From: Candidatus Yanofskybacteria bacterium
Lineage (GTDB): Bacteria > Patescibacteriota > Minisyncoccia > 2-02-FULL-40-12 > GWA2-44-9
Length of the DNA: 64,000 nucleotides
Reading direction: 5' to 3'
NCBI GenBank assembly: GCA_003514055.1
Contig: DOSG01000002.1
Location: forward strand, 79,825 to 143,824
The position numbers and the translations under genes were made by a program. This document shows positions 9,246-48,507 of the stretch, piece by piece; position 1 is the first letter of the stretch, and every line of letters starts with the position of its first letter. A model generated the notes under the pieces. That model was not told where the DNA came from and ran no database searches. It saw only the letters and a list, made by a program, of their open reading frames with translations.

Positions 9246-9350
9246 TATTCTAGTAATTAATTTTAGACTTTTTATCTAAGACATTTTTATAACTTTTTCT
9301 TACTATTCTTATTTGTGTAAGCATAACCTTACGGGGCTATGCGATTATGT

Positions 9351-10802: not shown

Positions 10803-11076
10803 AACCGTAGCGATTTTTAGTCAATTTTTCAAGTAGAGCAAGACCTTTTAATCATTGAGTGTTTGTGGTAAATTTAGCGTAACAATTCAGCCTAAACCAA
10901 TCGGGGCAACCTGATTAGCATGGCATCAAATACCGACGAAGATACTGAACCCATCGTTCAGGCTCCTTCGTCGGTCCATACCCGAAAGGGTGTGGGAGAG
11001 TGAAAGCTCTCGGCCTAGCGGTGGGTTTAGTGTTATACAAAACCCTGAGTCCCCATTAGCCGAGGCAAAATATACC

Positions 11077-11547: not shown

Positions 11548-11655
11548 ATAATGGGAGGATATCCCGACAAGGTTCAATACGATCTTGTCCAGTATCCATG
11601 TTGATTTTATTGTCTATTTCTGCGAGGATGTCTTCATCTAAATAATTTCAGCAAT

Positions 11656-12795: not shown

Positions 12796-13747
12796 ATCTT
12801 CTGCTCCTACTTTACGCCAGCTGATATCATTACCAAACCAAGCAGACGAGTTATCAGAGTTAGCAGATTGGGTAGAAGTTTCAGCATGGATTCAATCTGA
12901 CTATCAAGTTAGTCGGGAAGAGGTACTGTCTGTTTTTTCGTTTGCATCGGATAGTAATGATGCAGAAGAAAAAGTTTCAAAGTTGTGGGACGAATTAAAA
13001 ACCCGTGCTGTAATTCTCCAAGATCATTATCCCTTTGCGTTATCTCCCGGGGAAGAGATTTTTCAATTTAAAAATAACGACCGCTACAAGGCTTATCTTT
13101 TTTGTTTACTTCTTTCGTTTGTTGGACTTACAAAAATAAACTCCAGAACATTTCCCGCTGCAAGTATTTTTGAAGAGTTATGCTCTTCTGTCGCTCAGAA
13201 ATATATTTCAAGTGAGTCAGTTCCTGCGAAAAGCTTACATTTTGGTTGGCCGCGTAATAGCTGGCCCAGAAGACAAAGATCACTATTAAAGGCCCTGCCA
13301 GAGCTTATAAGGACCCTCGGAGATGGAGAAAATCTAATTGATGGTGTCAGAAGTGGACGAAGTGCTCATACAGGAGATGCGGGTCTAGATATTGCTGCTT
13401 GGCGTCCATTCGTAGATGAGAGAAGGGGCATGTTGGTATTTTTAGGGCAGTGTGCAACTTCTAGGGACCATAATAGTTACATGAAGAAATTAGGAGACCT
13501 CGATTCATTCCTACTAGAGTGTGTTAACTTTAATTTTCCAAACACCCTAGGGTTGTTTATACCCCATATCCTGAGCGACAACGATCAATCCCACAAGGAG
13601 TACTGGGAGAGAATAAAGAGAAGGAAGAATATCCCATTTGATAGAATTAGAATTGCTCTTTATGGCGAGTCTTGGTCAAACTCTAAACTAGATACTTTTT
13701 TAAGTAGTCAACGTAAAAAATTGAAACAGGAGCACTCTCTTACTTAA
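12767..13747 (+). CDS. Hypothetical protein, putative nuclease partner (DUF1524/His-Me-finger-like, tentative)
   Basis: C-terminal IPHILSDNDQSHKEYW...N...SNSK resembles the EHIxPQ...W...N...N pattern of DUF1524; translationally coupled to the ParB-like gene. Confidence 0.35.
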   Translation: MPRKKVKKARSSAPTLRQLISLPNQADELSELADWVEVSAWIQSDYQVSREEVLSVFSFASDSNDAEEKVSKLWDELKTRAVILQDHYPFALSPGEEIFQFKNNDRYKAYLFCLLLSFVGLTKINSRTFPAASIFEELCSSVAQKYISSESVPAKSLHFGWPRNSWPRRQRSLLKALPELIRTLGDGENLIDGVRSGRSAHTGDAGLDIAAWRPFVDERRGMLVFLGQCATSRDHNSYMKKLGDLDSFLLECVNFNFPNTLGLFIPHILSDNDQSHKEYWERIKRRKNIPFDRIRIALYGESWSNSKLDTFLSSQRKKLKQEHSLT

Positions 13748-14885
13748 GAACCTTGATCGTAAAGTCGTACTCTCCAGAGTCATCGTATTTTTTGCCGAAC
13801 ATTCTAGCCTGCCGCACTTTTTTAAAAGGAGAGTAGCTTTCTTTTATTAAACTAAGTTTTTGATTGCTCCTTTTTATGCTTTTCTGGATAATTTTTCGCA
13901 AAGGGTAATTATCTTTTGTGGATTGACCTATTCTACATACTATAATCCCATCTTTACTCATTATTTTAATAAGTGACTTCCATGTGTCAGAAAGAAAATC
14001 TATATATTTTTCTTGAGATGCAATTCTGTCATCTTTGGTTATCTTGCCTCGTGATGGAAATGGCTCGAATCCTAAGAACCATAGCCTTAGCCACTGGTCT
14101 TCCTCGTAAGATGTTATTTTTAAATATGGCGGAGACATTACTACTAGCGCGGCTTTCTTACTGGTGATCTTCTTTATGTTTCTATCAATATCTCTAACAT
14201 CTCCTAAGATACAATGCCCACGAGATTTAAATTTATGCTGTTTAGAGTTTGATAGTCTGAAATTTGTCCTGTCTCGTAAAACAGAGAAGGTGTCTATATG
14301 AGGAGCCTTCATTTTATTTTTGTGCCAGAATCTAACTGAGTAGCCTGGCTTCGGGCAATACGTATGGGGCAGGTTATTGCTTAAGTAAACCTTTTTTGTT
14401 TTTTGTGTTTCCCCGTGCAAGTAGCTAAGACATAATGTTTTAATAAAAAGACCCTCCTTTGTTTGCTCTTTTTTAAGTCGGTTCCTTAACCATAAAATCT
14501 GAAGTAGGGTTTTGCTATAGTATGCATGGCGGAAAAAAAGCGGCAACCTGGAAGCTTCTTCTCTGATAGAATTCTTATCGGCCGACTCAAACTCCTTCTC
14601 TAGTTTTTCGATGTATTTTAAGCAGGTAGCCAGTTTAATGGGCCTTGTTTTTGCTTGAGTAATCGCAAACGCCACAGGGTTTATATCATTGGCTATCGCC
14701 GCTCTTCCCAGTATTCTTGCTTCCAACAAGGTGGTTCCTCTACCTGAAAAGGGGTCTATAACTAAATCTCCTGGCTTTGAATGTTTTAAGATGGCGTCTC
14801 TAGCAAATTCTGGAGGGAACATGGCAAAATAAGGGCATAGTGCATGCATTGCATCATTGTAAGTTATTGAGGATATAATTTTCAT
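13740..14885 (-). CDS. DNA methyltransferase (N6-adenine or N4-cytosine, amino-MTase)
   Basis: AdoMet motif I DLVIDPFSGRGTT near the N-terminus and catalytic motif IV SPPY (VVMSPPYL) about 210 aa downstream. Confidence 0.8.
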   Translation of the reverse strand: MKIISSITYNDAMHALCPYFAMFPPEFARDAILKHSKPGDLVIDPFSGRGTTLLEARILGRAAIANDINPVAFAITQAKTRPIKLATCLKYIEKLEKEFESADKNSIREEASRLPLFFRHAYYSKTLLQILWLRNRLKKEQTKEGLFIKTLCLSYLHGETQKTKKVYLSNNLPHTYCPKPGYSVRFWHKNKMKAPHIDTFSVLRDRTNFRLSNSKQHKFKSRGHCILGDVRDIDRNIKKITSKKAALVVMSPPYLKITSYEEDQWLRLWFLGFEPFPSRGKITKDDRIASQEKYIDFLSDTWKSLIKIMSKDGIIVCRIGQSTKDNYPLRKIIQKSIKRSNQKLSLIKESYSPFKKVRQARMFGKKYDDSGEYDFTIKVLK

Positions 14886-15147
14886 TCCTGCTTTAAATTT
14901 AGCAAATTTATGAGACCTTGGCCAGAGTGGGTTAACAACAGGTGAAATTAAAGAAATCTATTCAATTTTTTTTGTAGTAAATCCAGGTCTCCGAATTCTT
15001 CGACCCAATCAATCTGTCTGAAATCGTCCTTCAGTGCGAGCTAGTAGCGCTGTTATAATGAGAGCCAGCATTATCTGACTTTTTAGTTATAACAAGTATG
15101 GACGGTAGAGCTAACTTCTGATAACCTTATCGCATTCCATCAGAAGG

Positions 15148-15756
15148 TTGAGACCTATGCGACTAATTATCGGCACCACAAATGAGGCCAAGGTTAAGCA
15201 AATTAAAGGAGCCTTGCTGCCACTGAAATTTCAAGTTGATGGCGTCAAAGATAAGAGTGTTCTTCCTGAAGTAATAGAGGATGGTGCGACTGCTCAAGAT
15301 AACGCCAGGAAGAAAGCCGTCGCATATGCCAAGGTATTGGGCGCAACAGTTTTATCAATGGATAACGCCCTATTTATTGATGGTCTGAACGAGAAAGAGC
15401 AGCCTGGCATTAATGTCCGGAGAATAAATAGTCGAGATGACCGTTCGGATGACCAAGAATTATTGAACCACTATAGTTCCTTAATCAGAAGGCTCGGAGA
15501 AAAAGTCGGGGGGCATTGGGAGTTTGCGATATGCGTAGCGACTCCAAGCGGCGAGACTCGTGAGACAACGATCATATCGCCAAGATTGTTTGTTGCTCAG
15601 TCGAGTTCGAAGATAGTACCAGGCTATCCGCTTGAGTCGATTCAAATTGAACCAGAGAGTGGAAAGTATATCTCCGAAATGAGCCAAGACGAACAGGACG
15701 TGTTTTGGCAGAAAGCAATCGGGAAAGAACTATGCAACTTTGTCGGATCATTGTAA
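15148..15756 (+). CDS. Ham1/RdgB-like non-canonical purine NTP pyrophosphatase (tentative)
   Basis: N-terminus RLIIGTTNEAKVKQIKGAL resembles the RdgB/Ham1 start; about 200 aa. Confidence 0.5.
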   Translation: MRPMRLIIGTTNEAKVKQIKGALLPLKFQVDGVKDKSVLPEVIEDGATAQDNARKKAVAYAKVLGATVLSMDNALFIDGLNEKEQPGINVRRINSRDDRSDDQELLNHYSSLIRRLGEKVGGHWEFAICVATPSGETRETTIISPRLFVAQSSSKIVPGYPLESIQIEPESGKYISEMSQDEQDVFWQKAIGKELCNFVGSL

Positions 15757-15770
15757 TCCCAGGCCCATTC

Positions 15771-15900
15771 GCCGACTAACGTCGGCTTTTTTATTCCAAA
15801 CAGATTCTGACATCAATGCATCAACGGAGCTAGCAGCGCTGCTATACGAAAGTTGACAAATGCCACGAGGGTGGTATTTTAGACTTAGTTTGCTCACAAA
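15771..15900 (+). promoter_or_regulatory. Intergenic module A: hairpin terminator (gccgactaacgtcggc+T7), conserved element ccaaacagattctgacatcaatgcatcaacggagc, then promoter TTGACA / ATGCCAC-gagg-GTGGTAT / TATTTTAG
   Basis: a homologous module occurs at 22086-22185. Confidence 0.6.
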
Positions 15901-15909
15901 GGATAGGCA

Positions 15910-16113
15910 ATGGCCAAACTGTCCATTAACGATATAAGACGGCGGATTAAACAAGCATCAGAGACCGGGCAAGCCTCGTGCGACATCGGGATTGAAGGGG
16001 CATTTCTAGTTCTCTTTGCTGGGATGTCCTTGAATGAAAGAAAACATATATCGAAACGAAAAAGTGAGGGGCGAAGAAGGCCAAACTCAAGCTCAAAGAA
16101 AAGAGCTCGCTGA
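15910..16113 (+). CDS. Small basic protein (67 aa), hypothetical
   Basis: ORF directly downstream of the operator-bearing promoter. Confidence 0.35.
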   Translation: MAKLSINDIRRRIKQASETGQASCDIGIEGAFLVLFAGMSLNERKHISKRKSEGRRRPNSSSKKRAR

Positions 16114-16228
16114 CCGAGAACGGTCATTTTTTAATCCAAACAGATCCTGGCATTCTTTACTCAGCGGAGCACCTATAAAAAGCCAGATAATACTGGCTTT
16201 TTGGTTGGACCTAATGTGGACGTTAGAA

Positions 16229-16927
16229 CTAATCTATCCTTTTCAAGACAAGGTCGCTGAACATACCCGGTATATTTTCGATTACCCACCCTGGCATATA
16301 TTTTTCAAACATAATTTTAAAATACTCCGAGCGTTCTTTCGCCTTACCTTTCCTGCGTAATTTATCGGGTAAAAAATCCTTATCAAATAGTGAATAATAT
16401 AATTCGAACACTTCGTGAGGCAAATGTCCGCTTTTTATTTCATCTCGAGTCAATTTATTGTTGGGATTTGCCAGAATCTCTTCTATGCACCTCCCTACGT
16501 CGCTCCCATAATAAGCAGTATCTGCCGGTGATATGCCGATTGCTTTAATTGATTTCAAGGAAGCCGCGGCTTCAATAAAAGAAGAGATGGCATTCCGAAG
16601 TATCGTCTGATCTTCTGGGCTTAGCCTTATCCGGGCGTATGCATATTCTCTAGTTTTAAATAGGAAGCTGTAACTATTGCCATAGCCTTCGGAAAGTCGG
16701 AATATATACTTTAGCCCGCCAATCGTCTTTTGTAAGGTATAGCGATTGTATGGTTGCTCCTCGCGTCGGAATGCGAAGGGGTAGGTCGTTGAATGATAAA
16801 TCTTTCCTTCTTCTAACTCTGGAAGGTTTTCTAACTCCAATTCTCGTTCGCTTTCGACGACTATGGGGGAGTTCGGCTTATGCTCTATAATCTTTTTGGC
16901 TTCGTTACTATTCCATTCTTGGCTCAT
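16229..16927 (-). CDS. Hypothetical protein (232 aa)
   Basis: long ORF on the minus strand inside the cassette region. Confidence 0.5.
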   Translation of the reverse strand: MSQEWNSNEAKKIIEHKPNSPIVVESERELELENLPELEEGKIYHSTTYPFAFRREEQPYNRYTLQKTIGGLKYIFRLSEGYGNSYSFLFKTREYAYARIRLSPEDQTILRNAISSFIEAAASLKSIKAIGISPADTAYYGSDVGRCIEEILANPNNKLTRDEIKSGHLPHEVFELYYSLFDKDFLPDKLRRKGKAKERSEYFKIMFEKYMPGWVIENIPGMFSDLVLKRID

Positions 16928-17099
16928 GATAATAATTCTACTATTAAATTTATTAAATGGTAGGGACGGCTAGATTAAATATTCAGATATTCTCTCAAGT
17001 CGGGGATATGCAAAAAATTCTCTTTTTTGATCACAGTTCTAACGTCATTCACAATGCGGAGCATTTTTCAGAGAGTGGCTTAAAACACCACTTTTTGAT

Positions 17100-17221
17100 A
17101 TTGCAAATATTAGGATTTTGTGCTATAATATAGACAATGTTGCACCATCTAATCTGGATGCGTGCAGGCAGACCGTAAACCAACGATCCAGCACAGCTGG
17201 ACGGATGGAAGGAGAGCGGCT
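17100..17221 (+). promoter_or_regulatory. Promoter TTGCAAAT...TGCTATAAT plus a conserved 52-nt leader (hairpin ccagc-aca-gctgg; RBS ggaaggagag) ahead of paralogue 1
   Basis: nearly identical to 23146-23264. Confidence 0.55.
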
Positions 17222-17650
17222 ATGGCAACTATGGTGTTGCTCGACAACAATGGCGAGAAAGTACGGACTCTCGGGTCGATCATCAATCCGAACCCGGATC
17301 TGGTCATCCCGCAGGGGTGGATGCTCAGTTGGGAAAATCAGTTCATGGAGGTCACTGCGACCGATCGTCTGAAAAATGCCGTGCTTACGCACGGGAAGGC
17401 CCGCGTCCTGGTCAATGTCGTGATGCAGACGCTCGTGGTCAGAATCGAGAGCCCGAATGTGAGGGATCTCGTGGAGGCAATCGACCTCATGGTTCAGTAC
17501 GTCGGGGGCGAGGTCGCTACGTTCAGCCCCTCCGCCGCCAACAATTCGTTCGTCGGCGGCATCAAGAACGACCTCGTCTTTCTTCGAAACATGGCGGTAC
17601 GGGCCATTCGCTCGCTACGGCAGCGAACTGGCTTCAAGATCGCGCGCTAA
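17222..17650 (+). CDS. GC-rich hypothetical protein, paralogue 1 (~142 aa)
   Basis: start MATMVLLDNNGEK after the RBS; 180 nt identical to the 23218-23398 copy, then diverged; own big-stem terminator downstream. Confidence 0.6.
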   Translation: MATMVLLDNNGEKVRTLGSIINPNPDLVIPQGWMLSWENQFMEVTATDRLKNAVLTHGKARVLVNVVMQTLVVRIESPNVRDLVEAIDLMVQYVGGEVATFSPSAANNSFVGGIKNDLVFLRNMAVRAIRSLRQRTGFKIAR

Positions 17651-17855
17651 GCGCTCACACCTCGCATCGAGACAGGGGATCCCAATCCTCGTCTGGTGCG
17701 GGGTCCTTTGTTTTTATACGTATCCAAGACTAATTAAATCTCCCCGAATTCTTACTCAATCCAGCGTTCTGAATGCGTTCCGTAGGCAGAGCAAAGCTTG
17801 ACAATAGCACTAGATGGTGCTATTGTTATTTTAACCTTAAAACTAGGAGAGTGTC

Positions 17856-18059
17856 ATGCGAATAGTTGCCGATGCGTCAAAACGTACATTGAAATTAACT
17901 GCCGAAACTGATATTGACGAGGATGAATTGATAAGAGCGAACTACGTAGTGGTAAGTTCCAAAAAGTGGTACCAATTTTGGAAAAAATCACCAACCGTTA
18001 AATTGACAATGGCTGGAGATAAGAATAAATATCTTCAGGCAATAGAAATCTCTTTCTAG
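17856..18059 (+). CDS. Small hypothetical protein (67 aa)
   Basis: promoter TTGACA-ATAGCAC-N6-GTGCTAT upstream; RBS aggaga; terminator gacccacagtgtgggtc follows. Confidence 0.4.
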   Translation: MRIVADASKRTLKLTAETDIDEDELIRANYVVVSSKKWYQFWKKSPTVKLTMAGDKNKYLQAIEISF

Positions 18060-18127
18060 GTGACCCACAGTGTGGGTCTTTCTTTTGCCTCAAAACAGTC
18101 TCTAACATCAAAGCGTTCGGGGAGTTA

Positions 18128-18162
18128 ACTTGATTATATCACGGAAACGTGGTATAATTATT
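18128..18162 (+). promoter_or_regulatory. Promoter TTGATT-N17-TGgTATAAT (extended -10)
   Basis: acttgattatatcacggaaacgtggtataattat; near-duplicate at 19808-19842. Confidence 0.55.
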
Positions 18163-18197
18163 CTAGTTCTCAAAAACCCAAGAAAGGAGTCAGTATA

Positions 18198-19322
18198 ATG
18201 AGTCTGAAACTGCGTCGGAGAGATAGACTATGGGTCATAACCCAAGGCCTGCCGCACGCTGTCGTGGCGGAAGTCCTCCTCGATCCTTGGGATCAGGTGG
18301 GCGAAGTCGTTCTGTATGCAGATTCCTCCGAGCAAGTTCAGCTCGAGGTTCTGCGTCTTGCGGCCTCACATGTTCGACAGTACGTTCGACATCGGACGGC
18401 TTCGGCTTTCGGTGGCCTCATGGTTGCCGAACATCGTAATCACAACCTGACGCGAGATGATTCCGACCGTTTCATGGATTTCTCGACGATCCCGTCGGAG
18501 ATTCAGGAGATGAATCGGGAGACGCTCACAAGAGGACTTCGCGAACTCCACATCAGTGTCTTTGCTGCCGTCCATCGGCGAGCCGAAGATGCAATCAGCG
18601 CCGCCATCGAACAAGTTGGCGTCGCTGGTCTCAAGTACGAAGTGATTCCCCAAAGGATGATCTTCGATACCGAGTTGATGGTTCGTTTCACCGTCGAAGA
18701 GCCGAACAGCTTCACCTTCTGGCACAGTCAGTCCAGGCCTGGTGGCGGGTTCGATCTCTACATCGTCCCGGCTTATCATCCCGTGATGAACGGGAAAGAG
18801 TCAGTTGGAATGGTCAACGGCGCTACAGATGCTTACATTCGCGGCAACGCGGTGAGAAGCATCTACTGCCCGGAGGACGCACAAGCAACAGATCCCAGTA
18901 AGAACTTCGGTACGAGCTGGAATCACGTGAAGCATCCGTTCTACGCGACAGGTCGTTCGATGGCGGTGAAGTTGATCACCACGAAGGTTCGTTCAGCCGA
19001 AAGCATGGAGGAGCTCACTCAGCTTCTGCGTGCTGCTCTCGGTCTGGACAACAAGTACGTGGACATCAGCGGCGGTTTCAATGCTCCGCTAAAGTGCGGG
19101 TACAATCGCATCGTTGAACTCGGCATCAGATCGCCCTATCCGCAAGCCGAGTACAGGCGCGGCGGTAACATCACTCGCGGTTCCGAACAACATTGCGTAT
19201 GGTCTTATCGAGTCCTCAAGGAAGAGGGGCAACTCGAGAAGGCCTACATTCCTTCCTGGTTTATCAAAGAAGGCTGGCTGAAGATCTACGAAGGCGCTGA
19301 AGAACGCCACGGTCTCTACTGA
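18198..19322 (+). CDS. GC-rich hypothetical protein (374 aa)
   Basis: strong RBS aaaggagtcagtataATG; GC content far above the surrounding DNA; terminator 19347-19396. Confidence 0.6.
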   Translation: MSLKLRRRDRLWVITQGLPHAVVAEVLLDPWDQVGEVVLYADSSEQVQLEVLRLAASHVRQYVRHRTASAFGGLMVAEHRNHNLTRDDSDRFMDFSTIPSEIQEMNRETLTRGLRELHISVFAAVHRRAEDAISAAIEQVGVAGLKYEVIPQRMIFDTELMVRFTVEEPNSFTFWHSQSRPGGGFDLYIVPAYHPVMNGKESVGMVNGATDAYIRGNAVRSIYCPEDAQATDPSKNFGTSWNHVKHPFYATGRSMAVKLITTKVRSAESMEELTQLLRAALGLDNKYVDISGGFNAPLKCGYNRIVELGIRSPYPQAEYRRGGNITRGSEQHCVWSYRVLKEEGQLEKAYIPSWFIKEGWLKIYEGAEERHGLY

Positions 19323-19494
19323 TGAGCAAGCTCAGAAATCACCTGCCCGCGAGAGCCCGCACATTACGTGCCCGCCTCGCGGGCTCTCTCTTTTTATACA
19401 AACGCATATTTTATTAAATCATTGTGAATACTAACCCAATCCAGCGTTCTGAATGCGTTCCGTAGGCAGAGCTGACAGCATTATTGCAAGTATA

Positions 19495-19524
19495 TTGACA
19501 AATACCACGCGAGTGGTATTCTAG
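19495..19524 (+). promoter_or_regulatory. Promoter with operator: TTGACA-a-ATACCAC-gcga-GTGGTAT-TCTAG
   Basis: perfect 7-bp inverted repeat between -35 and -10. Confidence 0.6.
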
Positions 19525-19556
19525 GTCAAGTTGATCGTTCTCTGAGGTAAGAGGCG

Positions 19557-19742
19557 ATGAATAAAAAACCACGTTCACCATATCGCAAGAAGCCTTTGCC
19601 TTGTCCTTTTGGATGTCCTGGGTGTTTAGGGAGATTTTTGGGCAAAAAATGTGAATGTTCGAATACGCTGTCAACGTGTCAGCGTGCTCGCAAAGGCGAG
19701 TGCAATGAGTGCCATGCCTGTCGTTCATGTCGAGATGCATGA
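19557..19742 (+). CDS. Cysteine-rich small peptide (61 aa, 12 Cys)
   Basis: CPFGCPGCLGRFLGKKCECSNTLSTCQRARKGECNECHACRSC; RBS gaggtaagagg; terminator caaaccgccatattggcggttt follows. Confidence 0.45.
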   Translation: MNKKPRSPYRKKPLPCPFGCPGCLGRFLGKKCECSNTLSTCQRARKGECNECHACRSCRDA

Positions 19743-19856
19743 TCAAACCGCCATATTGGCGGTTTTTATTTTCTAGATAGATCCTGATTTTATCCAGCGG
19801 AGTAGCACTTGATTATATCGTGTAAATGTGGTATAATTACTATACGGGGTGGCAAA

Positions 19857-20138
19857 ATGAATAAGGATACCGGGTGGATGATTGCTTCCGGGGTGGTAGG
19901 CTTCTTGTTCTTCTTGATCGCAAATTTCACAAACTTCTTTGCTGGCGCTAGTGTTCTGGCCGGCTGTCTCCAGCTTTGTGTTAATGCTTTTGTGTTCGTT
20001 GTCTGGGCCAGAGCATTCATGCGAAGCCATGGTTTTAAGAAGTTTGTGGCTTTCTTCGGAGTGATCGTCCCCGTCGGTATGGCGGGCGTTACTCTTTGGA
20101 GAATTCTAATCCCTGCAATCACAGCATCATTTGTTTGA
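19857..20138 (+). CDS. Small membrane protein (93 aa)
   Basis: two predicted TM segments; extended -10 promoter 19808-19842; terminator gaccgagaacggtc+T7 follows. Confidence 0.5.
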   Translation: MNKDTGWMIASGVVGFLFFLIANFTNFFAGASVLAGCLQLCVNAFVFVVWARAFMRSHGFKKFVAFFGVIVPVGMAGVTLWRILIPAITASFV

Positions 20139-20265
20139 TGCTCGCTGACCGAGAACGGTCTTTTTTTGTTGCAAAATAGGTTCTGATATTGATGCGTCAG
20201 CGAAGTTGGCGGCATTGCTACGTGAAAGCCAGACAAAGCTGGCTTTTTGGTTGAATCTGGTATAG

Positions 20266-20760
20266 ATGCCGGGGCTATGCTACGATTGGATCATGAATAT
20301 CATGCGGATATTATTGTATACTCTGGTTGCACTATTATTATGCTTGGTGGTCGTCTGGCTTGCTGTTGGAATTTGGAATGTCGATAAAGTTTACGGAAAG
20401 AAGATGTTTGGCTACCAAGAAGACAAAATTTGTATTGAATGTTTCAATGGTACTCGTACGGGTACTTGTCCACAACTGATGGATGATAAGCTCACATATC
20501 CACGCGCCGCTGAATCAACAGAAATGATGGATTCGGCGCCTAATGATAGTTCGGATTATTCCGATAGCCATGTTATTAGAAATGGGTTTTGCACTCAATT
20601 TCACTCTACATTAACTACCGAAGGGCAGGATTATATTAAAAGATTCCAGACGATGCCAATACCGGAGAAGAGTTATGCTGAGTCGCTTGGGGTAGCTTGG
20701 CGATATGTGGGAGATTTTTTTGTTGCTATTATCTGTCGCACCATTGGATGTAAAATGTAG
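20266..20760 (+). CDS. Membrane-anchored Cys-containing hypothetical protein (164 aa)
   Basis: N-terminal TM segment; terminator 20808-20850. Confidence 0.45.
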   Translation: MPGLCYDWIMNIMRILLYTLVALLLCLVVVWLAVGIWNVDKVYGKKMFGYQEDKICIECFNGTRTGTCPQLMDDKLTYPRAAESTEMMDSAPNDSSDYSDSHVIRNGFCTQFHSTLTTEGQDYIKRFQTMPIPEKSYAESLGVAWRYVGDFFVAIICRTIGCKM

Positions 20761-20912
20761 TTTATTATTTAATCCAAGTAGACTCTGGCCTCATTCACCA
20801 GACCGATCAAACTAAAACACCGTATCTTATGCGGTGTTTTAGTTTGATCGGTCACTTATTCGTCGTAGAGTAGGCCACGTATGGCATACTCTTAACTCGG
20901 GAATATAGATGT

Positions 20913-22040
20913 TTATCTCAGCTCTTTGATCATCCGTAGCTTCAAGCTTACGGCCGTTCCAATTGCAGTCAGGCTGAACAGAGAAATAACGGCATACCCT
21001 ACGAATGGAATGAACCAGAGGATAATATATGCGGCCACGCCAATTAACATAGTCTTCCAGCTAACGTCGAAATTCGTTTTCTTAGTAAGCCATTTATATA
21101 GAAGTGAACCTATGAATATCGGAGTTAAGGCACAGCTAAGGATACTAAGAGCAACAATACTTATGATGCCTAAAATTCCAAGCGGAATTCCAACGACCGT
21201 AACCAGAAGTAGAATAGATATTACGGGTAAGATAATAACAGTGACGAACCCCTTTCCAAGTGCGGCCCAGGGAGACTTGAAGGCAGTCTCAACTGCTTCA
21301 ACGCTGTAGCGTCTGAACATGATACCCATTAAGAATACTAGGACAATCATCATCAAGGCCTTCATGATCAACCAGAATGATATGAAAGCTTTGATAGGTC
21401 GACTTTCGTTACGCATCGCTTTCGATTCATAAGAAACTGTGCCAAGAATTTTTGCCTCGCTATCTCTAGACATTTCATTGGGTGAACGATAGGTAAGATT
21501 GCCGCTAATAACAGCTTTCGGTCCCAATTTCAATTGAGTGGCATCGACAATAATATCTCCAGTCACGGTGGAATTTATATATACCAATGCTCCTGCTATC
21601 CGAGCCTTACCTCGAACAGAAGCCTCGACATTAATTGAATTGCCGCCAAGTAAGAGGTCGCCACCCACTTGGCCACCGGAAACCGTAATCTGATTGCCGC
21701 CTATCATGGCATCGCCGCCAACGTTGCCCTGAATAAAAACAGTATTGCCGATAATCTTAACGTCGTCGTCGACATTGGCAGTAATGACAACATTGTTGCC
21801 AGCTGAAAAGAGATCTTGGCTGACCTGGTTACTTATGAGGACGGATTGACCTGCCGCAAAGAGATCTCCGATTATTGTACCAGTGACGGATACGCTACTG
21901 CCGGCGATATACAGATCATCGCTGACTATCTCTGACGAGCCGACGGTTGGGTTGCTTCCGCTCGTAAATGTCGCACCAAGAGCTACCGCTGGCAACAAAA
22001 GTGCCATGGCAACAAAGAGTATAATTTTTTGTTTGTTCAT
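20913..22040 (-). CDS. Bactofilin-like (beta-helical repeat) protein with signal peptide and C-terminal TM domain
   Basis: repeated G-rich beta-solenoid units (IIGDLFAAGQSV.., VGGDAMIGGNQITVSGG.., GDIIVDA..) followed by four TM helices. Confidence 0.5.
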   Translation of the reverse strand: MNKQKIILFVAMALLLPAVALGATFTSGSNPTVGSSEIVSDDLYIAGSSVSVTGTIIGDLFAAGQSVLISNQVSQDLFSAGNNVVITANVDDDVKIIGNTVFIQGNVGGDAMIGGNQITVSGGQVGGDLLLGGNSINVEASVRGKARIAGALVYINSTVTGDIIVDATQLKLGPKAVISGNLTYRSPNEMSRDSEAKILGTVSYESKAMRNESRPIKAFISFWLIMKALMMIVLVFLMGIMFRRYSVEAVETAFKSPWAALGKGFVTVIILPVISILLLVTVVGIPLGILGIISIVALSILSCALTPIFIGSLLYKWLTKKTNFDVSWKTMLIGVAAYIILWFIPFVGYAVISLFSLTAIGTAVSLKLRMIKELR

Positions 22041-22152
22041 ATCTATACTATAGCAAGTATCAGCAAATTTTCCAAAAATTCTCTAGCCGACTAGCGTCGG
22101 TTTTTTATTCCCAACAGATTTTGGCCTCATTTGCTCAGCGTGATGCACTTGA

Positions 22153-22185
22153 TTGACAGAACGCGATTTCGGTGGTATTATTAAT
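22153..22185 (+). promoter_or_regulatory. Promoter TTGACA...GTGGTAT half-site...TATTATTAAT
   Basis: member of the operator-promoter family; left half-site degenerate. Confidence 0.45.
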
Positions 22186-22211
22186 ATATCCTGAAATCTG
22201 GAGGTTGTGCC

Positions 22212-22421
22212 ATGCCCGACATTCGTAAGTGTGCAGTCTGTCGCGTTGAGTTTGACTTCGACGAGTCCGGGCTAGAGGGTCCAAACGACGTCGTGGTCTG
22301 CGGCGCGGTCTGTGCCAAAAAGTCTGCCGCCAGTCGTGGAAGCGAATATGTGATCCACGACGGCGAGGGGGCGGTAGTTGAGACGAACATCACTCCTGGC
22401 ATCAAGACTCACCGCTGGTAA
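22212..22421 (+). CDS. GC-rich small Cys protein (zinc-ribbon-like CxxC...CxxxC), 69 aa
   Basis: CAVCRVEF...VVVCGAVC; RBS ggagg. Confidence 0.45.
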   Translation: MPDIRKCAVCRVEFDFDESGLEGPNDVVVCGAVCAKKSAASRGSEYVIHDGEGAVVETNITPGIKTHRW

Positions 22422-22462
22422 TCTTATCTCGAACGCCACATCAAGGAACAGGAGGAGTGCAA

Positions 22463-22678
22463 ATGAAAGTCACGGTTCTCGAGAAACCGACCGGAGGAAC
22501 GTGGTCACGATCTGAGGTTGAGGCTATCATGGGGACAATGACCGAAGTCGAACAGCTACCGAGGCTGCCGAATCGTATCGTGCTCATGAACAAGCCGCTC
22601 CGTGGTTCGATCTCGTGCGCTCTGGGCCACACCAACTACGTCGCGCGAGAAGTGGACTACCACGATCGCTGGGCCTAG
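22463..22678 (+). CDS. GC-rich small hypothetical protein (72 aa)
   Basis: RBS aggagg; terminator 22683-22740. Confidence 0.4.
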   Translation: MKVTVLEKPTGGTWSRSEVEAIMGTMTEVEQLPRLPNRIVLMNKPLRGSISCALGHTNYVAREVDYHDRWA

Positions 22679-22861
22679 CTATCGGCCCGCCTACTTGGCG
22701 ACGGAAACCCGTCGACTCAAGTCGGCGGGCTTCTTTTTTTATCCATATCCAGCTGAGTCTTTTTGGGTGTTTGCCGAGGTTGTCGATCTGAATATGTTCT
22801 GTGAGCGAAGCAAGGCATGCGGATGGTTTACGAATATCGTTTTAATTGATATGCTAAAGTT

Positions 22862-23062
22862 ATGCAAAAAATAGCTACAAAAGTATTCGTCGGGGCGTCT
22901 GTCGCTTTCGGTATTATCGGACTGTCGATGGTTGTGACAACATCTCCTGAAAGCAACGGCCCGAATGTTGTTCTGTTGAAACTTCTCTTCACTAGCGTCA
23001 TTGTCATTTTAACCTCGTTCGCTCTAAGTGTAGCCAGTAAGTATCTCAACAATAAGTCCTAA
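22862..23062 (+). CDS. Small membrane protein (66 aa)
   Basis: two hydrophobic helices; terminator aaaagtgcc-ttaaat-gggcactttttgg. Confidence 0.4.
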   Translation: MQKIATKVFVGASVAFGIIGLSMVVTTSPESNGPNVVLLKLLFTSVIVILTSFALSVASKYLNNKS

Positions 23063-23264
23063 TCTCAGTTAGGTTATAGAATTGATGCCCAAGAGGAGAG
23101 GGGCGCGTCTTTCAAAAAGTGCCTTAAATGGGCACTTTTTGGTATTGCAAACGTTACAGTTTCGTGCTATAATATAAATAATGTTGTGGCGTCTAACCTG
23201 GGCGTCGCGAACAGACCGTAAACCAACGATCCAGCACAGCTGGACGGATGGAAGGAGAGCGGCT

Positions 23265-23693
23265 ATGGCAACTATGGTGTTGCTCGACAACAATGGCGAG
23301 AAAGTACGGACTCTCGGGTCGATCATCAATCCGAACCCGGATCTGGTCATCCCGCAGGGGTGGATGCTCAGTTGGGAAAATCAGTTCATGGAGGTCCTCG
23401 CAAAGGACCACCTGAACAACGCCGTACTAACGCATGGGAAGGCTCTCGTTCTGGTCACCGCTATGATGAGTACGGTTGTGGTCCGGATTGAGAGCCCGAA
23501 CGTGAAGGACCTGGTCGAGGCGATCGACCTCGTGACCCGGTACCTTGGCGGCGAGGTTGCCACCTTCAGCCCCAACGCCGCCAACAATTCGTTCATTGGC
23601 GGTATCAAGAATGACCTCATCTTCCTTTGGGGGAAGACGACTCAGGCCATTCGCTCGCTACGGCAGCGGATTGGTTTCAAGATCGCACGCTAA
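23265..23693 (+). CDS. GC-rich hypothetical protein, paralogue 2 (~142 aa)
   Basis: same promoter, leader and first ~45 codons as 17222-17650. Confidence 0.6.
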   Translation: MATMVLLDNNGEKVRTLGSIINPNPDLVIPQGWMLSWENQFMEVLAKDHLNNAVLTHGKALVLVTAMMSTVVVRIESPNVKDLVEAIDLVTRYLGGEVATFSPNAANNSFIGGIKNDLIFLWGKTTQAIRSLRQRIGFKIAR

Positions 23694-23771
23694 GCGTGCA
23701 TGCCTCGCATCGAGACAGGGGACCTCAATCCTTGTCTAGTGCGAGGCCCTTTGTTTTTATTCGTACCGAAT

Positions 23772-25073
23772 TTATTTTAGGAACCAAGCCTTAACGACTT
23801 CTTCAGATGGTTTGTTGCGGAAGCCGGCCGATATCGATATCAGGGGCCTTACTTCTGGATCGAGAGCATCATCCCAGGCGAAATTACCGACGTTAATCCT
23901 GACGATATTCGTTGCATCTCGGACCACCGAAAAGAAGGAATTAAAAGCTTTGGCTTGCTCGTTGTAATCACTTTCAAGGGCTCTGATCGATGGGTTTTTG
24001 GAATCGAGATATTCGACTGGGCCAGCAAAAGTGCCGTCTGTATAGCTGGATGGTGCGAAGAATAGAGATACCTTTATTCCCTTCGCAATGGCCTTTCGGT
24101 TAACATCTTCGATCATTCTTCCCATCGCCGCATCGAATGATTCTTCTCCGTCTATTTTGTACTTGCCAGGTATAGCGTATATTTTTATCTCAATCACGTC
24201 GGCTTCCTTGTAATAATCATATTTTGTCCAATCTTCCTTTCCGTTTTTGCCGTCGATAAACCCGTATATATTCAGATCAGTCATTATCTCTCCTTTAAAA
24301 TTCTCCTTGACCTTAGATATGAGTTTTTTCCATAATCTATTCGCAAGCTCCTCGTGTCTAGTAAACGTTGGGTCCTGGAACATGGGCGATATGGACATAA
24401 TATCGACTCCAGCTTCCTGGTACATCTTACCCTTCTCTGATAATCGCGATTCCCATTTTTCGAAGTAATTGGAAATCCATTCTTCCGTATGTGAACTGTT
24501 GAAGTCTTCGTAATCTTTCGCGACGTCTGTGGTAATATCTCCTTTTATCCCAGACAATATGAATTTCCCGATATTCACGAAGGCCAGATTTCTTTTTATG
24601 CCAAGTTTCATCCCGCGTGAATGGGCGGCTTCTACGAGCTTCTCCAGATCCTCGGAGTTTATTGATTCGTCACGCATATCGTTCCAGAATGTTTCGTCAG
24701 CTAACTGATATGAAGTACTTTTATAGTCTGTCTCGTCGTCATATAGAGCCCTGTCAAAATCGTGTATGAATATCTCTTTGGCGCCAAGAGTTCTTACTCG
24801 TTCGAATGAACTCTCAATATTGGCCTGCGTCGTTTCGAACATTCCCATATTGTAGTTTCGGCCCCATGTGTCGTACATATTAACCGCTTTTATTTGAGGC
24901 AGAGGGGATGGAGAAACCGATACTTCATATTTGTGTACTATAAATTCTCCACGGCACCAGGGAGGAGTCGGCCATGGTCCGACAGGTGGGCAGATATTGG
25001 AAGCGAACATCGCGCCGATTAGTAGAAGAAGGATCGCCGCGATGATCGCAAGATAGATAAAAGTTTTTCTCAT
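23772..25073 (-). CDS. Membrane-anchored glycoside-hydrolase-like (TIM-barrel) protein, tentative
   Basis: N-terminal TM segment; 433 aa; overall composition only, no specific motif confirmed. Confidence 0.35.
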   Translation of the reverse strand: MRKTFIYLAIIAAILLLLIGAMFASNICPPVGPWPTPPWCRGEFIVHKYEVSVSPSPLPQIKAVNMYDTWGRNYNMGMFETTQANIESSFERVRTLGAKEIFIHDFDRALYDDETDYKSTSYQLADETFWNDMRDESINSEDLEKLVEAAHSRGMKLGIKRNLAFVNIGKFILSGIKGDITTDVAKDYEDFNSSHTEEWISNYFEKWESRLSEKGKMYQEAGVDIMSISPMFQDPTFTRHEELANRLWKKLISKVKENFKGEIMTDLNIYGFIDGKNGKEDWTKYDYYKEADVIEIKIYAIPGKYKIDGEESFDAAMGRMIEDVNRKAIAKGIKVSLFFAPSSYTDGTFAGPVEYLDSKNPSIRALESDYNEQAKAFNSFFSVVRDATNIVRINVGNFAWDDALDPEVRPLISISAGFRNKPSEEVVKAWFLK

Positions 25074-35207: not shown

Positions 35208-35362
35208 ACCATGGAGTGCCCGATATACGTGTTGATCTTATGCAACACTAATTAAGGCTCGATTTTTCCTCTTTTCAACCCGCAAAATAGGGGAGGAACG
35301 TTCATTTCTCCTTGCTAAAACAGTAAGATTGATGGCCTAGACAGGTCTAAGCTGTTGCGATT

Positions 35363-35392
35363 GACGAAACCGCCTGTTTATGCTATAATTAA
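35363..35392 (+). promoter_or_regulatory. Promoter TTGACG-N17-TGcTATAAT ahead of a GC-rich gene
   Basis: ttgacgaaaccgcctgtttatgctataatt. Confidence 0.5.
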
Positions 35393-35474
35393 TACAACAG
35401 TGATGGTAGGGACCTTCACAACAGAATACGTTAGATTTGGTGCTTTTTTTCTTGTATCCATAAGGAGCTTGAGG

Positions 35475-36734
35475 ATGAAGAAGATCGACAGGACTGCCGA
35501 ATTCCCTCAGTTGAGGGACGGCGAAGTGTATGCGGACTGGACGGGAGCGGCGCTTCCACCGGTATCGCTCATCAGCAAGTTCGCGACGTTTCTGACGTCG
35601 CATCTGCTGGGTAACCCACACTCATCGCACCGGGCATCGCAGACCGCCTCCGACATGGTGACGGCGACGCGAGCGAGAATTCTGTCGTATCTCAACGCTT
35701 CCAGCGATGAATACGATGTGGTCTTTACCCCGAACGCGACCGGTGCGATCCGTATCCTCGAACACTTCGTGTTCCGGGGCGGTGAGCTTCTGCTCACCGC
35801 GGACAACCATAACTCGGTCAACGGCTTGCGGGAAACCGCAAAACGTGACGGAGGGGTGGTGCGCTACGCGCCCATCAATGGCAATCTCGGGATCGACGTA
35901 GATGGGTTGGTCCGACTGCTCGACTACCCGCGTACGGAAGGTGGGAACAAGCTCTTCGCCTACCCGGCGAAGAGCAATTACTCGGGGGTGTGTCATCCGC
36001 TCGAGCTAGTCGGGATGGCGCAGGAACGCGGGTGGTACGTCCTTCTGGACGCCGCCGCGTACAACGCGAACTGCCGTCTCGATCTGAGCGCGGTCAAGCC
36101 GGACTTCGTTCCGGTGTCGTTCTACAAGATGTTCGGGTTCCCAACGGGTGTCGGTTGCCTGATCATCAAGAAGACGGCCTACGCAGCGCTGGCCAAGAAG
36201 TGGTTCGCCGGCGGCTCGATCCGACTGGTGTCGGTCGCCACCGACTACTTTACCCATGATCGTGGGGCGTCGAAGTACGAGGACGGAACCATCAACTTCC
36301 AGATGATCCCGGCGATCATGGAAGGGCTCGAGTTCCTCGAGGAGTTTGGGGATCGGAATCGGCACGCCATCGCGTTGGCTACCCAGCTCCGTGACGAGCT
36401 CAAGGGCTTGGCAGTGGGAGACGCCTTGTTCGTCATTCACAGCCCGCGTGGTACGGACACCGTGGCTTGCGCCGTTCGCAAAGACGGCGAATACTTGTCA
36501 GTGAGAAGGTTTGAAGAGTTCGCCTCTGAGCGTGGAGTTCACGTCCGGGCGGGCGACTTCTGCAACCCCGGGGCTAACGAGCAGGTGTATGGCTTCGTGG
36601 TCGACCCAAACGAGCCGCAATTCGATGCGGCTCCCAACGGGAGCATCAGAATTTCATTTGGCTACGCCAACGTGGCGAGCGATGTTTCACGGATTCTCGA
36701 GGTGGCAAGGGAGTACTTGGACCACATCCAGTAG
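35475..36734 (+). CDS. GC-rich class-V aminotransferase-fold PLP enzyme (MOCOS/cysteine-desulfurase-like)
   Basis: SFYKMFGFPTGVGCL resembles the PLP-lysine region of the molybdenum-cofactor sulfurase/NifS family; RBS taaggag. Confidence 0.55.
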   Translation: MKKIDRTAEFPQLRDGEVYADWTGAALPPVSLISKFATFLTSHLLGNPHSSHRASQTASDMVTATRARILSYLNASSDEYDVVFTPNATGAIRILEHFVFRGGELLLTADNHNSVNGLRETAKRDGGVVRYAPINGNLGIDVDGLVRLLDYPRTEGGNKLFAYPAKSNYSGVCHPLELVGMAQERGWYVLLDAAAYNANCRLDLSAVKPDFVPVSFYKMFGFPTGVGCLIIKKTAYAALAKKWFAGGSIRLVSVATDYFTHDRGASKYEDGTINFQMIPAIMEGLEFLEEFGDRNRHAIALATQLRDELKGLAVGDALFVIHSPRGTDTVACAVRKDGEYLSVRRFEEFASERGVHVRAGDFCNPGANEQVYGFVVDPNEPQFDAAPNGSIRISFGYANVASDVSRILEVAREYLDHIQ

Positions 36735-36746
36735 GAGAGGTGACAC

Positions 36747-36938
36747 ATGAGCCAGGATCAGTCGAAGGTTGACTCGCGTATCAAGGTCGGCTCGATCGTG
36801 AGTCGCCGTGGGCAGGAATACAGGGTGACAGAGTTCACCCACGGCTGCTGCGGCGGCGACGAACAGGTTCGGGTCAGGGATGGCAACGGCTTTTCGGCCG
36901 GGCCGTTCTACACCGACAACGTCAAGTTCGTTCGATAG
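36747..36938 (+). CDS. GC-rich small protein (63 aa) with an HGCCGG motif
   Basis: RBS gagagg; terminator cccccgggggg...ccccggggttttt follows. Confidence 0.35.
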   Translation: MSQDQSKVDSRIKVGSIVSRRGQEYRVTEFTHGCCGGDEQVRVRDGNGFSAGPFYTDNVKFVR

Positions 36939-37128
36939 TCGTCTACGCGACGGCTATCAGCCCCCGGGGGGTTCTACCCCCGGGGTTTTTGTTTACTAAA
37001 TAAATTGCCCAACGAGCGATCATATAAAAATATCTGGATTAATATCCGCGTATTTAGGAAGGAATAAAAAGATGATCCATGAGTGGATCATCTTTTTATT
37101 CCTGGGGAACTATAAACGAGTCTTTGTC

Positions 37129-47652: not shown

Positions 47653-47765
47653 CCACCTTGCCTAGGTGGTTTTATGTTTAACTGGTAGTATGTCGCAGTT
47701 TATGGCCAGATTTTTTATTTCATTGCGAGCCGCTTGTAATATAGAAATAACGTGGTATAATGCGG

Positions 47766-47795
47766 CCGTGATTCGTGTTGGTTCGTAAGCAACTT
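47766..47795 (+). promoter_or_regulatory. Promoter TTGTAA-N17-TGgTATAAT ahead of a GC-rich gene
   Basis: cttgtaatatagaaataacgtggtataatg. Confidence 0.5.
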
Positions 47796-47843
47796 GGGTG
47801 ACTACTACCAGAGGCCAGATGCCTAAAAAGTAGTGGAGGAATT

Positions 47844-48359
47844 ATGGAAAGACTAAAACGGTTGATGGCCGAAGCCGAGGCTCTCATCATCGGGTCCGAT
47901 GATGAGCCGAATAGCGGCAAGAATTTCGATGACGTGGTCATCGGTGTCTTGCCGGATGGGCTGAAGAGGCTCGGTGTCCTCATCGGGCGCAAGTACGACC
48001 AGATCAAGGCGATGGTCAGGGAGGGTATCCACCTGTGTGACGCCGACGAGGGCCTTGAGCCCCACGAACACACGTCGGAACACAAGGAGTTCCACGCGAA
48101 GGTCCGCGCCGCCGAGGCGGAGCTGAAGTTCGTCAAGGATCTCTTCTGGGGTCTGGTGAAGATCGAATTCCCGGACGCCAACGACAAGGGAGAGCTGCTC
48201 GTTTGCATCGGCTTCGAGTTGGTGGCGAGGAAGAGCGAACCGAAACTCGACGGTTTGCGCCAGACACTGAATGCCATGGGCGTCGACTTCAAGGTTGTGC
48301 GTGCGTCTGTGGGCGACACGCCTCAGATCTTGGTGCCTGGATCCAAGGCCCGCAACTAG
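47844..48359 (+). CDS. GC-rich hypothetical protein (171 aa)
   Basis: RBS ggagga; hairpin terminator 48367-48420. Confidence 0.5.
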   Translation: MERLKRLMAEAEALIIGSDDEPNSGKNFDDVVIGVLPDGLKRLGVLIGRKYDQIKAMVREGIHLCDADEGLEPHEHTSEHKEFHAKVRAAEAELKFVKDLFWGLVKIEFPDANDKGELLVCIGFELVARKSEPKLDGLRQTLNAMGVDFKVVRASVGDTPQILVPGSKARN

Positions 48360-48507
48360 TCAGCGCGGGGTCTATTCAATCCCATGGTAGACGAAGCTTC
48401 GAGCTCCGTCTACCATGGGATTTTTACTTTTTAGGCTCATTTATGGACACGTATTGTAAAATGTGGGCTATTAGTGTAGTCTATGGCTATATAAATTAAA
48501 CAAAAAC

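Follow-up and report, generated by a model that had tools for sequence, protein, structure and literature searches.

In a 64,000-nt chromosomal stretch of a groundwater Candidatus Yanofskybacteria (Parcubacteria, candidate phyla radiation, CPR), which contains a dnaG-rpoD pair, has proteins named accordingly in NCBI and UniRef, and is called the window below, six GC-rich units (A1, A2, B, C, D, and E) hold eight open reading frames (ORFs; A1, A2, B, C1, C2, D, d63, and E). The reading that we favor, with a probability of roughly 60%, is that these units are self-contained promoter-to-terminator cassettes which entered by horizontal transfer from a gene pool of higher GC and, while under purifying selection, are in the course of amelioration, and the best label for them is moron-like chromosomal cassettes from a GC-richer pool. 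Genes that came by horizontal transfer and stand out in GC are well known from textbooks; what sets this case apart is the clean modularity of the units, their recurrence across CPR, and the evidence for decay of their GC content. We found no description of GC-rich single-gene cassettes in CPR in the literature.

The GC content of the whole window was 43.3%, while the named GC-rich segments had 54.8–59.8% and their ORFs had GC at third codon positions (GC3) of 0.62–0.80. As background we used the 57 other window genes of at least 100 amino acids (aa), which had a mean GC of 0.426 (SD 0.027, maximum 0.51) and a mean GC3 of 0.412 (SD 0.045, maximum 0.52); relative to this set, the GC-rich units deviated with z = 4.5–6.4 for GC and 4.7–8.7 for GC3. 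The primary sigma factor gene rpoD and other window genes stayed at GC3 of 0.52 or below. An earlier note on this DNA had described several ORFs as far GC-richer than their surroundings, and this was borne out by GC, GC3, and z scores. The GC-rich segments that it listed are real, but two of them had to be divided: 22212-22678 is two ORFs of 69 and 71 aa, and 35475-36938 is a 419-aa ORF (stop codon TAG, 36732-36734) followed by a 63-aa ORF with its own ribosome-binding site (RBS).

Judged by sequence comparison, the GC-rich ORFs are real genes, with purifying selection in the pairs that could be compared. The comparison contigs and loci carrying homologues are labeled with L-numbers (L008, L098, and so on) in the following. 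The ratio of nonsynonymous to synonymous divergence (dN/dS) was 0.13–0.22 in every comparable pair, that is for A1/A2, B, C1, D, and d63, with 0.22 for A1 versus A2 and approximately 0.2 for C1 versus its homologue in L098. B could be aligned over its full length with 28 homologues, and 24 residues were invariant across the 29 sequences. The codon-position GC of E (0.64/0.34/0.80) fits the forward frame and not an antisense ORF. A structured non-coding RNA as the cause of the high GC was ruled out by the dN/dS of 0.13–0.22 and the conserved protein alignments, and Rfam gave nothing in 16.5–24 kb or 35.2–37.2 kb of the window. Whole-transcript mutagenic retrohoming with adenine loss, as in diversity-generating retroelements, was also rejected, as the sense strand was not A-depleted and the AT skew of the islands was about 0 to +0.12.

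All six units are read on the forward strand. Cassette A1 (17101..17722) has its promoter at 17101-17129 (TTGCAA-17-TGCTATAAT), a 92-nt GC-rich leader, a coding sequence (CDS) at 17222-17650 for a 142-aa near-orphan protein (GC 57.3%, GC3 0.77), and a terminator stem at 17687-17703 followed by a T-run. Its paralogue A2 (23145..23765) has the same arrangement, with promoter 23145-23173, a GC-rich leader, CDS 23265-23693 (142 aa; GC 55.9%, GC3 0.76), and terminator 23730-23746, and the two form a 660-nt repeat that is 84% identical from promoter through terminator. Cassette B (18130..19395) consists of promoter 18130-18158, a 39-nt leader, CDS 18198-19322 (374 aa, of a Parcubacteria-restricted family with an unmatched fold), and a terminator hairpin at about 19346-19386 with a T-run. 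Cassette C (22153..22740, GC 56.7%) has a promoter at 22153-22181 that matches 11 of 12 consensus positions, the two CDS C1 (22212-22421, 69 aa, GC3 0.67) and C2 (22463-22678, 71 aa, GC3 0.69, with its own AGGAGG RBS), and a terminator at 22708-22729 with a T-run. Cassette D (35361..36995, GC 59.8%) has promoter 35361-35389, an AT-rich 85-nt leader, CDS 35475-36734 for a 419-aa class-V pyridoxal phosphate (PLP) enzyme that is cysteine desulfurase-like, CDS 36747-36938 for d63 (63 aa, predicted to be co-transcribed with D, with a DUF1918 label from one source), and terminator 36962-36985; GC3 was 0.76 for D and 0.79 for d63. Cassette E (47734..48432) has promoter 47734-47761, an 82-nt leader, CDS 47844-48359 for a 171-aa near-orphan (GC 58.9%, GC3 0.80), and a long hairpin at about 48381-48421 followed by TTTTTACTTTTT.

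As the earlier note had proposed, a promoter and RBS precede and a hairpin terminator follows the coding region, and this was found in 6/6 units. The predicted promoters are of sigma-70 type, with consensus matches at 10–11 of 12 positions plus the extended −10 TG, and the strict pattern TTGnnn-N13-15-TGnTAnnWT had 18 matches window-wide, six of which were the cassette promoters; this promoter grammar is common to low-GC host genes. The leaders are 30–92 nt long and carry a Shine-Dalgarno site. At the 3′ end of all six units a G+C-rich hairpin followed by a T-run was predicted to be an intrinsic terminator; that of E has a 13-nt loop, was missed by the scan, and was read straight from the sequence. 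Maximum-likelihood change-points (2ΔlnL = 30–95) placed the 5′ GC edge within 25 nt of the ATG in B, C, D, and E, but 68–79 nt upstream of it in A1 and A2, because the leader of these two is GC-rich. The 3′ edge was always 47–68 nt beyond the stop codon, at the end of the terminator stem, and therefore the GC step tracks the CDS plus the terminator rather than the stop codon. So the jump in composition that had been said to coincide with start and stop codons does so at the starts of B, C, D, and E, but not at those of A1 and A2 and at no stop.

The limits of the transferred unit could be seen by blastn where copies of B lie in unrelated flanks: homology ran from about −62 to −74 before the ATG to +65 to +130 past the stop. 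Outside a common stretch of 1.27 kb with 90.5% identity, L098 and L100 have no homology, and the window is homologous at 18136-19452 and 18136-19387 when compared with L098 or L100. The B leader (..cgaacgaaagggttcga..ATG) is kept in L008, L102, and L126, and the B homologue in L125, a contig of 59% GC, retains an AT-rich TTGATT-17-TAGAAT promoter, the leader, and the terminator. The promoter (TTGACG...TGCTATAAT), leader, and terminator of D are likewise homologous in L096, where the neighbours differ, and the B, C1, X, and D units (X is a cassette of ordinary GC described below) occupy other positions and orders in L098, L100, and L096. Promoter, leader, and terminator are thus homologous together with the CDS, and therefore the AT-rich "shell" belongs to the cassette and is no sign of later domestication. 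The suggestion that foreign genes had been placed under native control signals is not supported, in the light of the homology of B and D and the case of L125.

Approximate synonymous divergence (dS, NG86) of B, C1, and D was 0.66–0.96, although the synonymous sites of core genes are saturated or nearly so in the genome pairs compared. For the window and L098, dS was 0.82 for B (78% aa identity) and 0.66 for C1 (77%), while three core genes were saturated (proportion of synonymous differences, pS, 0.85–0.90; 59–70% aa identity); between the window and L096, dS of D was 0.91 and core genes had 1.5 or were saturated. Cassette dS is below core dS, and therefore the cassettes are younger than the split of the genomes. 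Together with the differing contexts and the decay of GC toward the host, this upholds the claim that the genes were horizontally acquired.

The fate of the GC content was followed in family B by counting strong-to-weak (S>W) and weak-to-strong (W>S) substitutions polarised by parsimony. On the L098 and L100 branches, S>W:W>S was 59:23 with one outgroup (p = 9e-5) and 38:7 with two concordant outgroups, and on the window branch it was 26:14. From these counts the GC3 at equilibrium would be about 0.32, no higher than in the host, and they show B copies decaying in GC in L098, L100, and the window. The ratio was balanced in the two GC-richest copies, with 30:23 in L008 (host 49% GC, GC3 0.75) and 28:28 in L102 (host 35% GC, GC3 0.77), and these two copies seem to have evolved at a GC-rich equilibrium and arrived recently. 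Intact but ameliorated copies were found in L016, L020, and L116/117, with GC3 of about 0.27–0.29. Fully ameliorated copies thus exist, and therefore high GC is not needed for function. In a Muto-Osawa-type calibration of genome GC from 52 loci, the window background pointed to 42–44% by all five measures used, and B, C, and D self-consistently pointed to about 53–58%.

The GC islands recur in other genomes. B homologues fell into 58 clusters, and every named one is from Parcubacteria; they had 51–60% GC in flanks of 34–52% and were at least 4 GC points above their flanks in 14 of the 17 loci with usable flanks, with a maximum of 25 points. The homologues in L123 and L125 (contigs of 59% GC) are at native composition and have only about 35% identity; the Pfam content of these two contigs was uninformative on lineage, and a MacB protein was 42% identical to that of the window. 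The nearest named relatives of D (50–56% identity) are nearly all from CPR (Magasanikbacteria, Komeilibacteria, Buchananbacteria, and "Saccharibacteria"), with one named Syntrophothermus match at 50% identity. On CPR-type contigs (L013/17, L014, L015/19, and L096), D homologues were 8 to 20 GC points above their flanks, and the genes of this family had 54–57% GC in flanks of 35–46%. As a negative control, 22 more distant non-CPR homologues of D were within about 0.04 of the GC of their own flanks; most non-CPR relatives have about 40–44% identity and come mostly from Chloroflexota/Acidobacteriota of 50–72% GC. The distribution is patchy, with 58 (B), 4 (A), and 18 (E) relatives among billions of proteins; A has one homologue of 53% identity on another contig, and E has just weak relatives among 1.84 billion representatives.

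Taken together, the favored reading would run as follows. Each segment would be an autonomous cassette made of an extended −10 promoter, a leader with a Shine-Dalgarno site, one or two GC-rich CDS, and an intrinsic terminator, and the whole cassette would have been acquired horizontally after the Yanofskybacteria lineage split from its relatives, from a gene pool evolving at about 53–61% GC. Function would keep promoter and leader AT-rich, in high-GC genomes too, and the shell would look host-like because the AT-rich promoter is functional and the pool uses the recipient's promoter grammar. Resident cassettes would be transcribed independently of their neighbours and retained by purifying selection, while their GC would passively decay toward the approximately 42% of the host; the high GC would thus be a historical signature and not a functional requirement. 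Composition, signals, purifying selection, the limits of the units, an age below that of the core genes, the direction of substitution, and the return of the pattern in further CPR genomes were observed; the way in which the cassettes move and the identity of the pool are what we infer. The most likely donors would be other CPR/Patescibacteria, because the promoter grammar is shared, B is restricted to Parcubacteria, and transfers within this group follow a published pattern: of the transfers into Patescibacteria that an independent study detected, 83% had other Patescibacteria as their source (PMC12455944).

Several points weigh against this reading. The NG86 dS values are approximate under skewed codon usage, and the S>W counts are somewhat inflated by parsimony with a GC-richer outgroup. 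A and E are GC3-heavy, their GC3 implying a genome GC of 64–66% and their GC2 and amino acids 38–52%, which is the reverse of the classical amelioration signature. No donor genome was found, and neither a mobilising enzyme nor a proven recombination site was found. Gene GC clusters at 51–60% almost whatever the host GC, which maintenance of GC predicts likewise. In the window and in L096 alike, D has one and the same core gene (the 37908 homologue) within 1–2 kb, and D may have descended vertically with synonymous constraint.

The rival that survives best is that the high GC is actively maintained in situ by synonymous-site selection (for mRNA stability or translation, or to avoid nucleases or silencers that target AT) or by GC-biased gene conversion in accessory genes that recombine often, so that the genes need not be recent. 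It would account for gene GC of 51–60% in hosts of 34–59% GC, for the 54–57% GC of the D family in flanks of 35–46%, for the GC3 of A and E, which far exceeds what their amino-acid composition implies, and for the position of D near one core gene; a dS below that of core genes could also reflect synonymous constraint. We nevertheless regard it as unlikely, since S>W changes strongly outnumber W>S changes on the branches of the window, L098, and L100, with an implied equilibrium at or below that of the host, intact copies exist with GC3 of only 0.27–0.29, B and D units stand in unrelated contexts with sharp homology breaks, and the remaining window genes, rpoD among them, do not share the elevated GC3.

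That the units are true phage morons, the cargo of a prophage or prophage remnant, seems quite unlikely to us. Their anatomy fits the moron definition (PMC3594210), and the 17–24 kb array abuts a region that resembles an integrated element, but genes for structural proteins of phages were not seen. A, B, and E had no PHROG matches and no relatives in 2.9 million IMG/VR contigs, and B had no structural match in the viral library BFVD; a phage or plasmid origin of these three was rejected as IMG/VR, PHROGs, PADLOC, and BFVD were all negative. Moreover, D and E, and B/D homologues elsewhere, have housekeeping genes as neighbours (such as TsaD/LeuRS, SecDF/SecA, and NUDIX/response regulator).

It is very improbable that the CDS alone were captured from a high-GC non-CPR host or partner and then fitted with native promoters and terminators. 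Distant D relatives in Chloroflexota/Acidobacteriota, the Syntrophothermus match, and the GC step within 25 nt of the ATG in four cassettes would agree with such a capture. However, most of the non-CPR relatives of D are too distant for recent donors and its nearest named ones are nearly all CPR, named B relatives are all Parcubacteria, A and E are near-orphans, promoter, leader, and terminator were transferred together with the CDS, and the 3′ GC step takes in the terminator. The high-GC host or partner that the earlier note had offered as an example of a donor is therefore not supported by the relatives of B, A, E, or D.

A chimeric assembly with contaminant DNA mis-joined into a low-GC scaffold, a caveat raised beforehand, has nothing but the compositional contrast itself in its favor and was refuted, since 10–17 kb stretches of the locus agree with the window at 100% identity in three assemblies (one from ENA, two from JGI), NCBI GCA_001795995.1 differs only by one 171-bp gap in A2, the cassette proteins were found on 18–28 contigs, the GC-rich segments are just 0.5–1.6 kb long with matching transcription signals at both sides, and the pattern is repeated in unrelated CPR genomes.

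The moron-like cassettes can be compared with three known systems. The concept of phage "morons" ("more DNA") reportedly goes back to Juhala and Hendrix. A moron is defined by its own promoter and terminator, deviant GC, and horizontal spread (Cumby, Davidson & Maxwell 2012, PMC3594210). Our units agree with this as independent units with predicted promoter and terminator of their own (6/6), with GC that deviates from the neighbours, with horizontal spread, and with accessory function; as additional DNA, B, C1, X, and D are found elsewhere or reordered in L098, L100, and L096, and L097 is without the 6 kb between A1 and A2, which may be an assembly collapse. They differ from phage morons in that they are not inside a recognisable phage genome, have no relatives on viral contigs, and lie among chromosomal housekeeping genes of CPR, and in that their offset is always toward higher GC with the same families recurring as islands across CPR lineages. 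Thus the cassettes agree with the moron definition except for residence in a phage.

In the framework said to have been laid out by Lawrence and Ochman, acquired genes or "genomic islets" undergo amelioration, and the cassettes resemble these in atypical GC and GC3, patchy distribution, sub-core divergence, and substitutions toward host composition. Unlike classical islets, each cassette comprises just one transcription unit and ends exactly at its promoter and terminator, D and E have no tRNA genes, integrases, or IS elements at their flanks, and the donor pool appears to use the promoter grammar of the recipient; unlike in classical amelioration, GC3 of A and E is more displaced than GC1 and GC2.

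Like integron cassettes, the units are small, mostly single-gene modules that are largely co-oriented in an array (17–24 kb) and shuffled between genomes, with a short conserved motif at several junctions. Integron cassettes are normally promoterless, whereas every unit here has its own strong predicted promoter, and the 3′ ends are short perfect G+C hairpins with T-runs, not attC. By inspection, the repeat search showed no attC-like imperfect palindrome of 57–141 nt, and no IntI-type tyrosine recombinase was found in the Pfam scans, which covered the window ORFs apart from several that lie mostly beyond 38 kb; the sole recombinase in those scans was a large serine recombinase about 8 kb from the array. 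So an integron was rejected for want of attC and IntI and for the promoters of the cassettes.

The junction motif has two copies on the forward strand that flank a pair of cassettes. Copy 1 (AATCCAGCGTTCTGAATGCGTTCCGTAGGCAGAGC; 17758..17797) lies just upstream of the −35 box of a low-GC 67-aa cassette (promoter 17798-17826, CDS 17856-18059, forward strand), and copy 2 (19438..19478) lies at the junction of cassette B with the following cassette X (19476..19796, forward strand). X has its promoter at 19495-19522, a CDS (19557-19742) for a 61-aa Cys-rich peptide with CPxxC, CxC, and CxxC motifs, and its terminator at 19745-19765. Copy 1 lies in a 92-nt direct repeat with 19381-19472, and this repeat has a perfect 35-nt core. 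Four genomes have a motif of the form gTTCTrA-N~17-GmAGC (about 30 nt) that precedes the −35 boxes of several cassettes by 0–22 nt: at 17758-17797, 18096-18129, and 19438-19478 in the window, at 6984-7017 and 7894-7927 in L098, at 670-701 in L100, and at 9890-9920 and 11184-11214 in L010. In L010 it stands on both sides of B as a direct repeat, and in the window on both sides of the pair of 67-aa cassette and B. The break in L098/L100 homology falls at its 3′ end, and the homology of the B unit with L098 stops at 19452 while that of the X unit starts at 19476. X is 82% identical in nucleotides to L098 7017-7340, the peptide (61–63 aa) is 83% identical, and X is downstream of B in the window but upstream of B in L098. 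The junction motif could be a recombination site or a regulator site. A repeat GCGTTC-N5-GCGTTC was rejected as a window-wide regulator site, being exact only in the two junction copies and in total not above chance. It is a speculative and rather improbable extension that the units are substrates of a dedicated Parcubacteria cassette-exchange system, integron-like but self-expressing, that recombines at the junction motif; were it true, the GC-rich cassettes would mark directional gene flow from GC-rich to GC-poor CPR via that system.

The genomes of CPR/Patescibacteria are tiny, and how they gain functions is an open question. The B and D families turn up repeatedly in CPR genomes that are only distantly related, each time as a single GC-rich unit that expresses itself and is sharply limited by promoter and terminator, which points to an active gene pool, probably within CPR, that is recognisable by composition alone. 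GC3 outliers bounded by promoter and terminator would give a simple handle for mapping recent gene flow of CPR in metagenomes, and they flag proteins that are repeatedly retained, such as the B family with its unmatched fold and the divergent desulfurase-like enzyme with its small partner. They also call for caution, as a sharp GC step at a start codon beside a "native-looking" promoter is no proof of domestication under local signals.

The functions of the cassettes are accessory, with no assigned role for A, C, and E. The predicted fold of B is confident and without structural match, and from this model B looks like an enzyme with an unmatched fold; the predicted model of A had pLDDT 51.6 and was unusable. 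D matches PF00266 with E = 1.6e-39 and 136 bits against a cut-off of 21.5, so its superfamily membership holds, but it is below all NCBIfam equivalog cut-offs (SufS, 112.9 versus 475 bits; CsdA, 86 versus 607). It shares the class-V aminotransferase fold with SufS/CsdA and with the NifS-like domain of molybdenum cofactor sulfurase, and among solved structures CsdA and SufS are its best relatives (E about 1e-21 to 1e-15). In an alignment of the D clade (35 sequences), K218, the lysine of SFYK and a candidate for the binding of PLP, was invariant, and C363, the cysteine of GCFCNPG and a candidate catalytic residue, was near-invariant. We take D to be a PLP-dependent enzyme of the cysteine-desulfurase kind that has a small partner. 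Unlike SufS/CsdA, it scores far below the equivalogs, forms a separate, mostly CPR clade, and is paired with a 63-aa protein and not with SufE, SufU, or CsdE.

Some further observations were made on the promoters and leaders. A palindromic spacer (CCAC/TCAC-N5-6-GTGG) is fused to the extended −10 (GTGGTATwwT) at 15853-15880, 18130-18158, 19809-19837, and 45988-46015; in the promoter of B it shows paired changes between the window and L098 (TCACG..CGTGG versus CCACA..TGTGG), and this spacer may be an operator. The GC-rich leaders of A1 and A2 (17130-17221 and 23174-23264) are identical to each other in their 3′ 53 nt, fold modestly better than shuffled sequences (z = −2.05), and have a TCCAGC/GCTGGA hairpin just ahead of the RBS; they may be a translational control element. 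In L097 (a JGI 3300009296 contig), window 14091-17270 is joined directly to 23207-24516, so that the 6 kb between A1 and A2 are absent and a single hybrid A gene with the A1 leader and the A2 body remains. Either a deletion by recombination gave rise to this variant, or the assembly collapsed across about 110 identical bases.

Further unrelated GC-outlier genes lie beside B and D homologues, namely L013 8221-8883 (reverse strand) and L014 11483-12079 and 14400-15269, and additional GC-outlier neighbours in CPR genomes are L098 6151-6813 and L102 4529-4972; GC-rich islands of one gene seem to be general in the accessory regions of CPR. L018 has, at 8001-9275, a close homologue of D (56% identity) on a contig of 54% GC that is labeled Gammaproteobacteria, does not look like CPR, and also encodes pyruvate kinase, an NRPS-like reductase, and asparagine synthase; even here the GC of the homologue exceeds that of its flanks by 10 points, and two genes of 65–69% GC lie next to it. 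In L015 (= L019, OZ246412.1, a CPR chromosome of 35% GC), a candidate type III hammerhead lies at 11371-11432 (forward strand), 65 nt downstream of the D homologue, with a complete CUGAUGAG...CGAAA core and an RF00008 match of 33.8 bits (local E = 7e-6) that is below the gathering score. A similar sequence at about 11390-11440 in L014 has no Rfam match. A hammerhead as a general 3′ feature of the cassettes was rejected, with the sub-threshold match in L015 only and none in L014 or the window. Elsewhere in the window, a modest rise of GC (51–54%) at 60504-60880 and 61643-61981 surrounds a doubtful 73-aa ORF (60583-60804) and a gene for an RRM-type "RNA-binding regulator" (NF058537, E = 1e-32). 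The part at 60504-60880, where Rfam had no match, could be an unannotated RNA.

The region next to the array, window 7383-16000, is a block that resembles an integrated element; it adjoins dnaG-rpoD, and the GC-rich array begins right after it. It contains the large serine recombinase (7383-9011, reverse strand), an O-like replication initiator (9351-9749), a PD-Lambda-5_A-like/ParB-like protein (11656-12795), a PHROG-family protein (12767-13747), a DNA methylase (13740-14885), and a Ham1 protein (15148-15756). A LOOT RNA (RF03000) was matched over its full length with 76.4 bits at 10889-11011 on the forward strand, just upstream of and overlapping the start of ORF 10990-11547.

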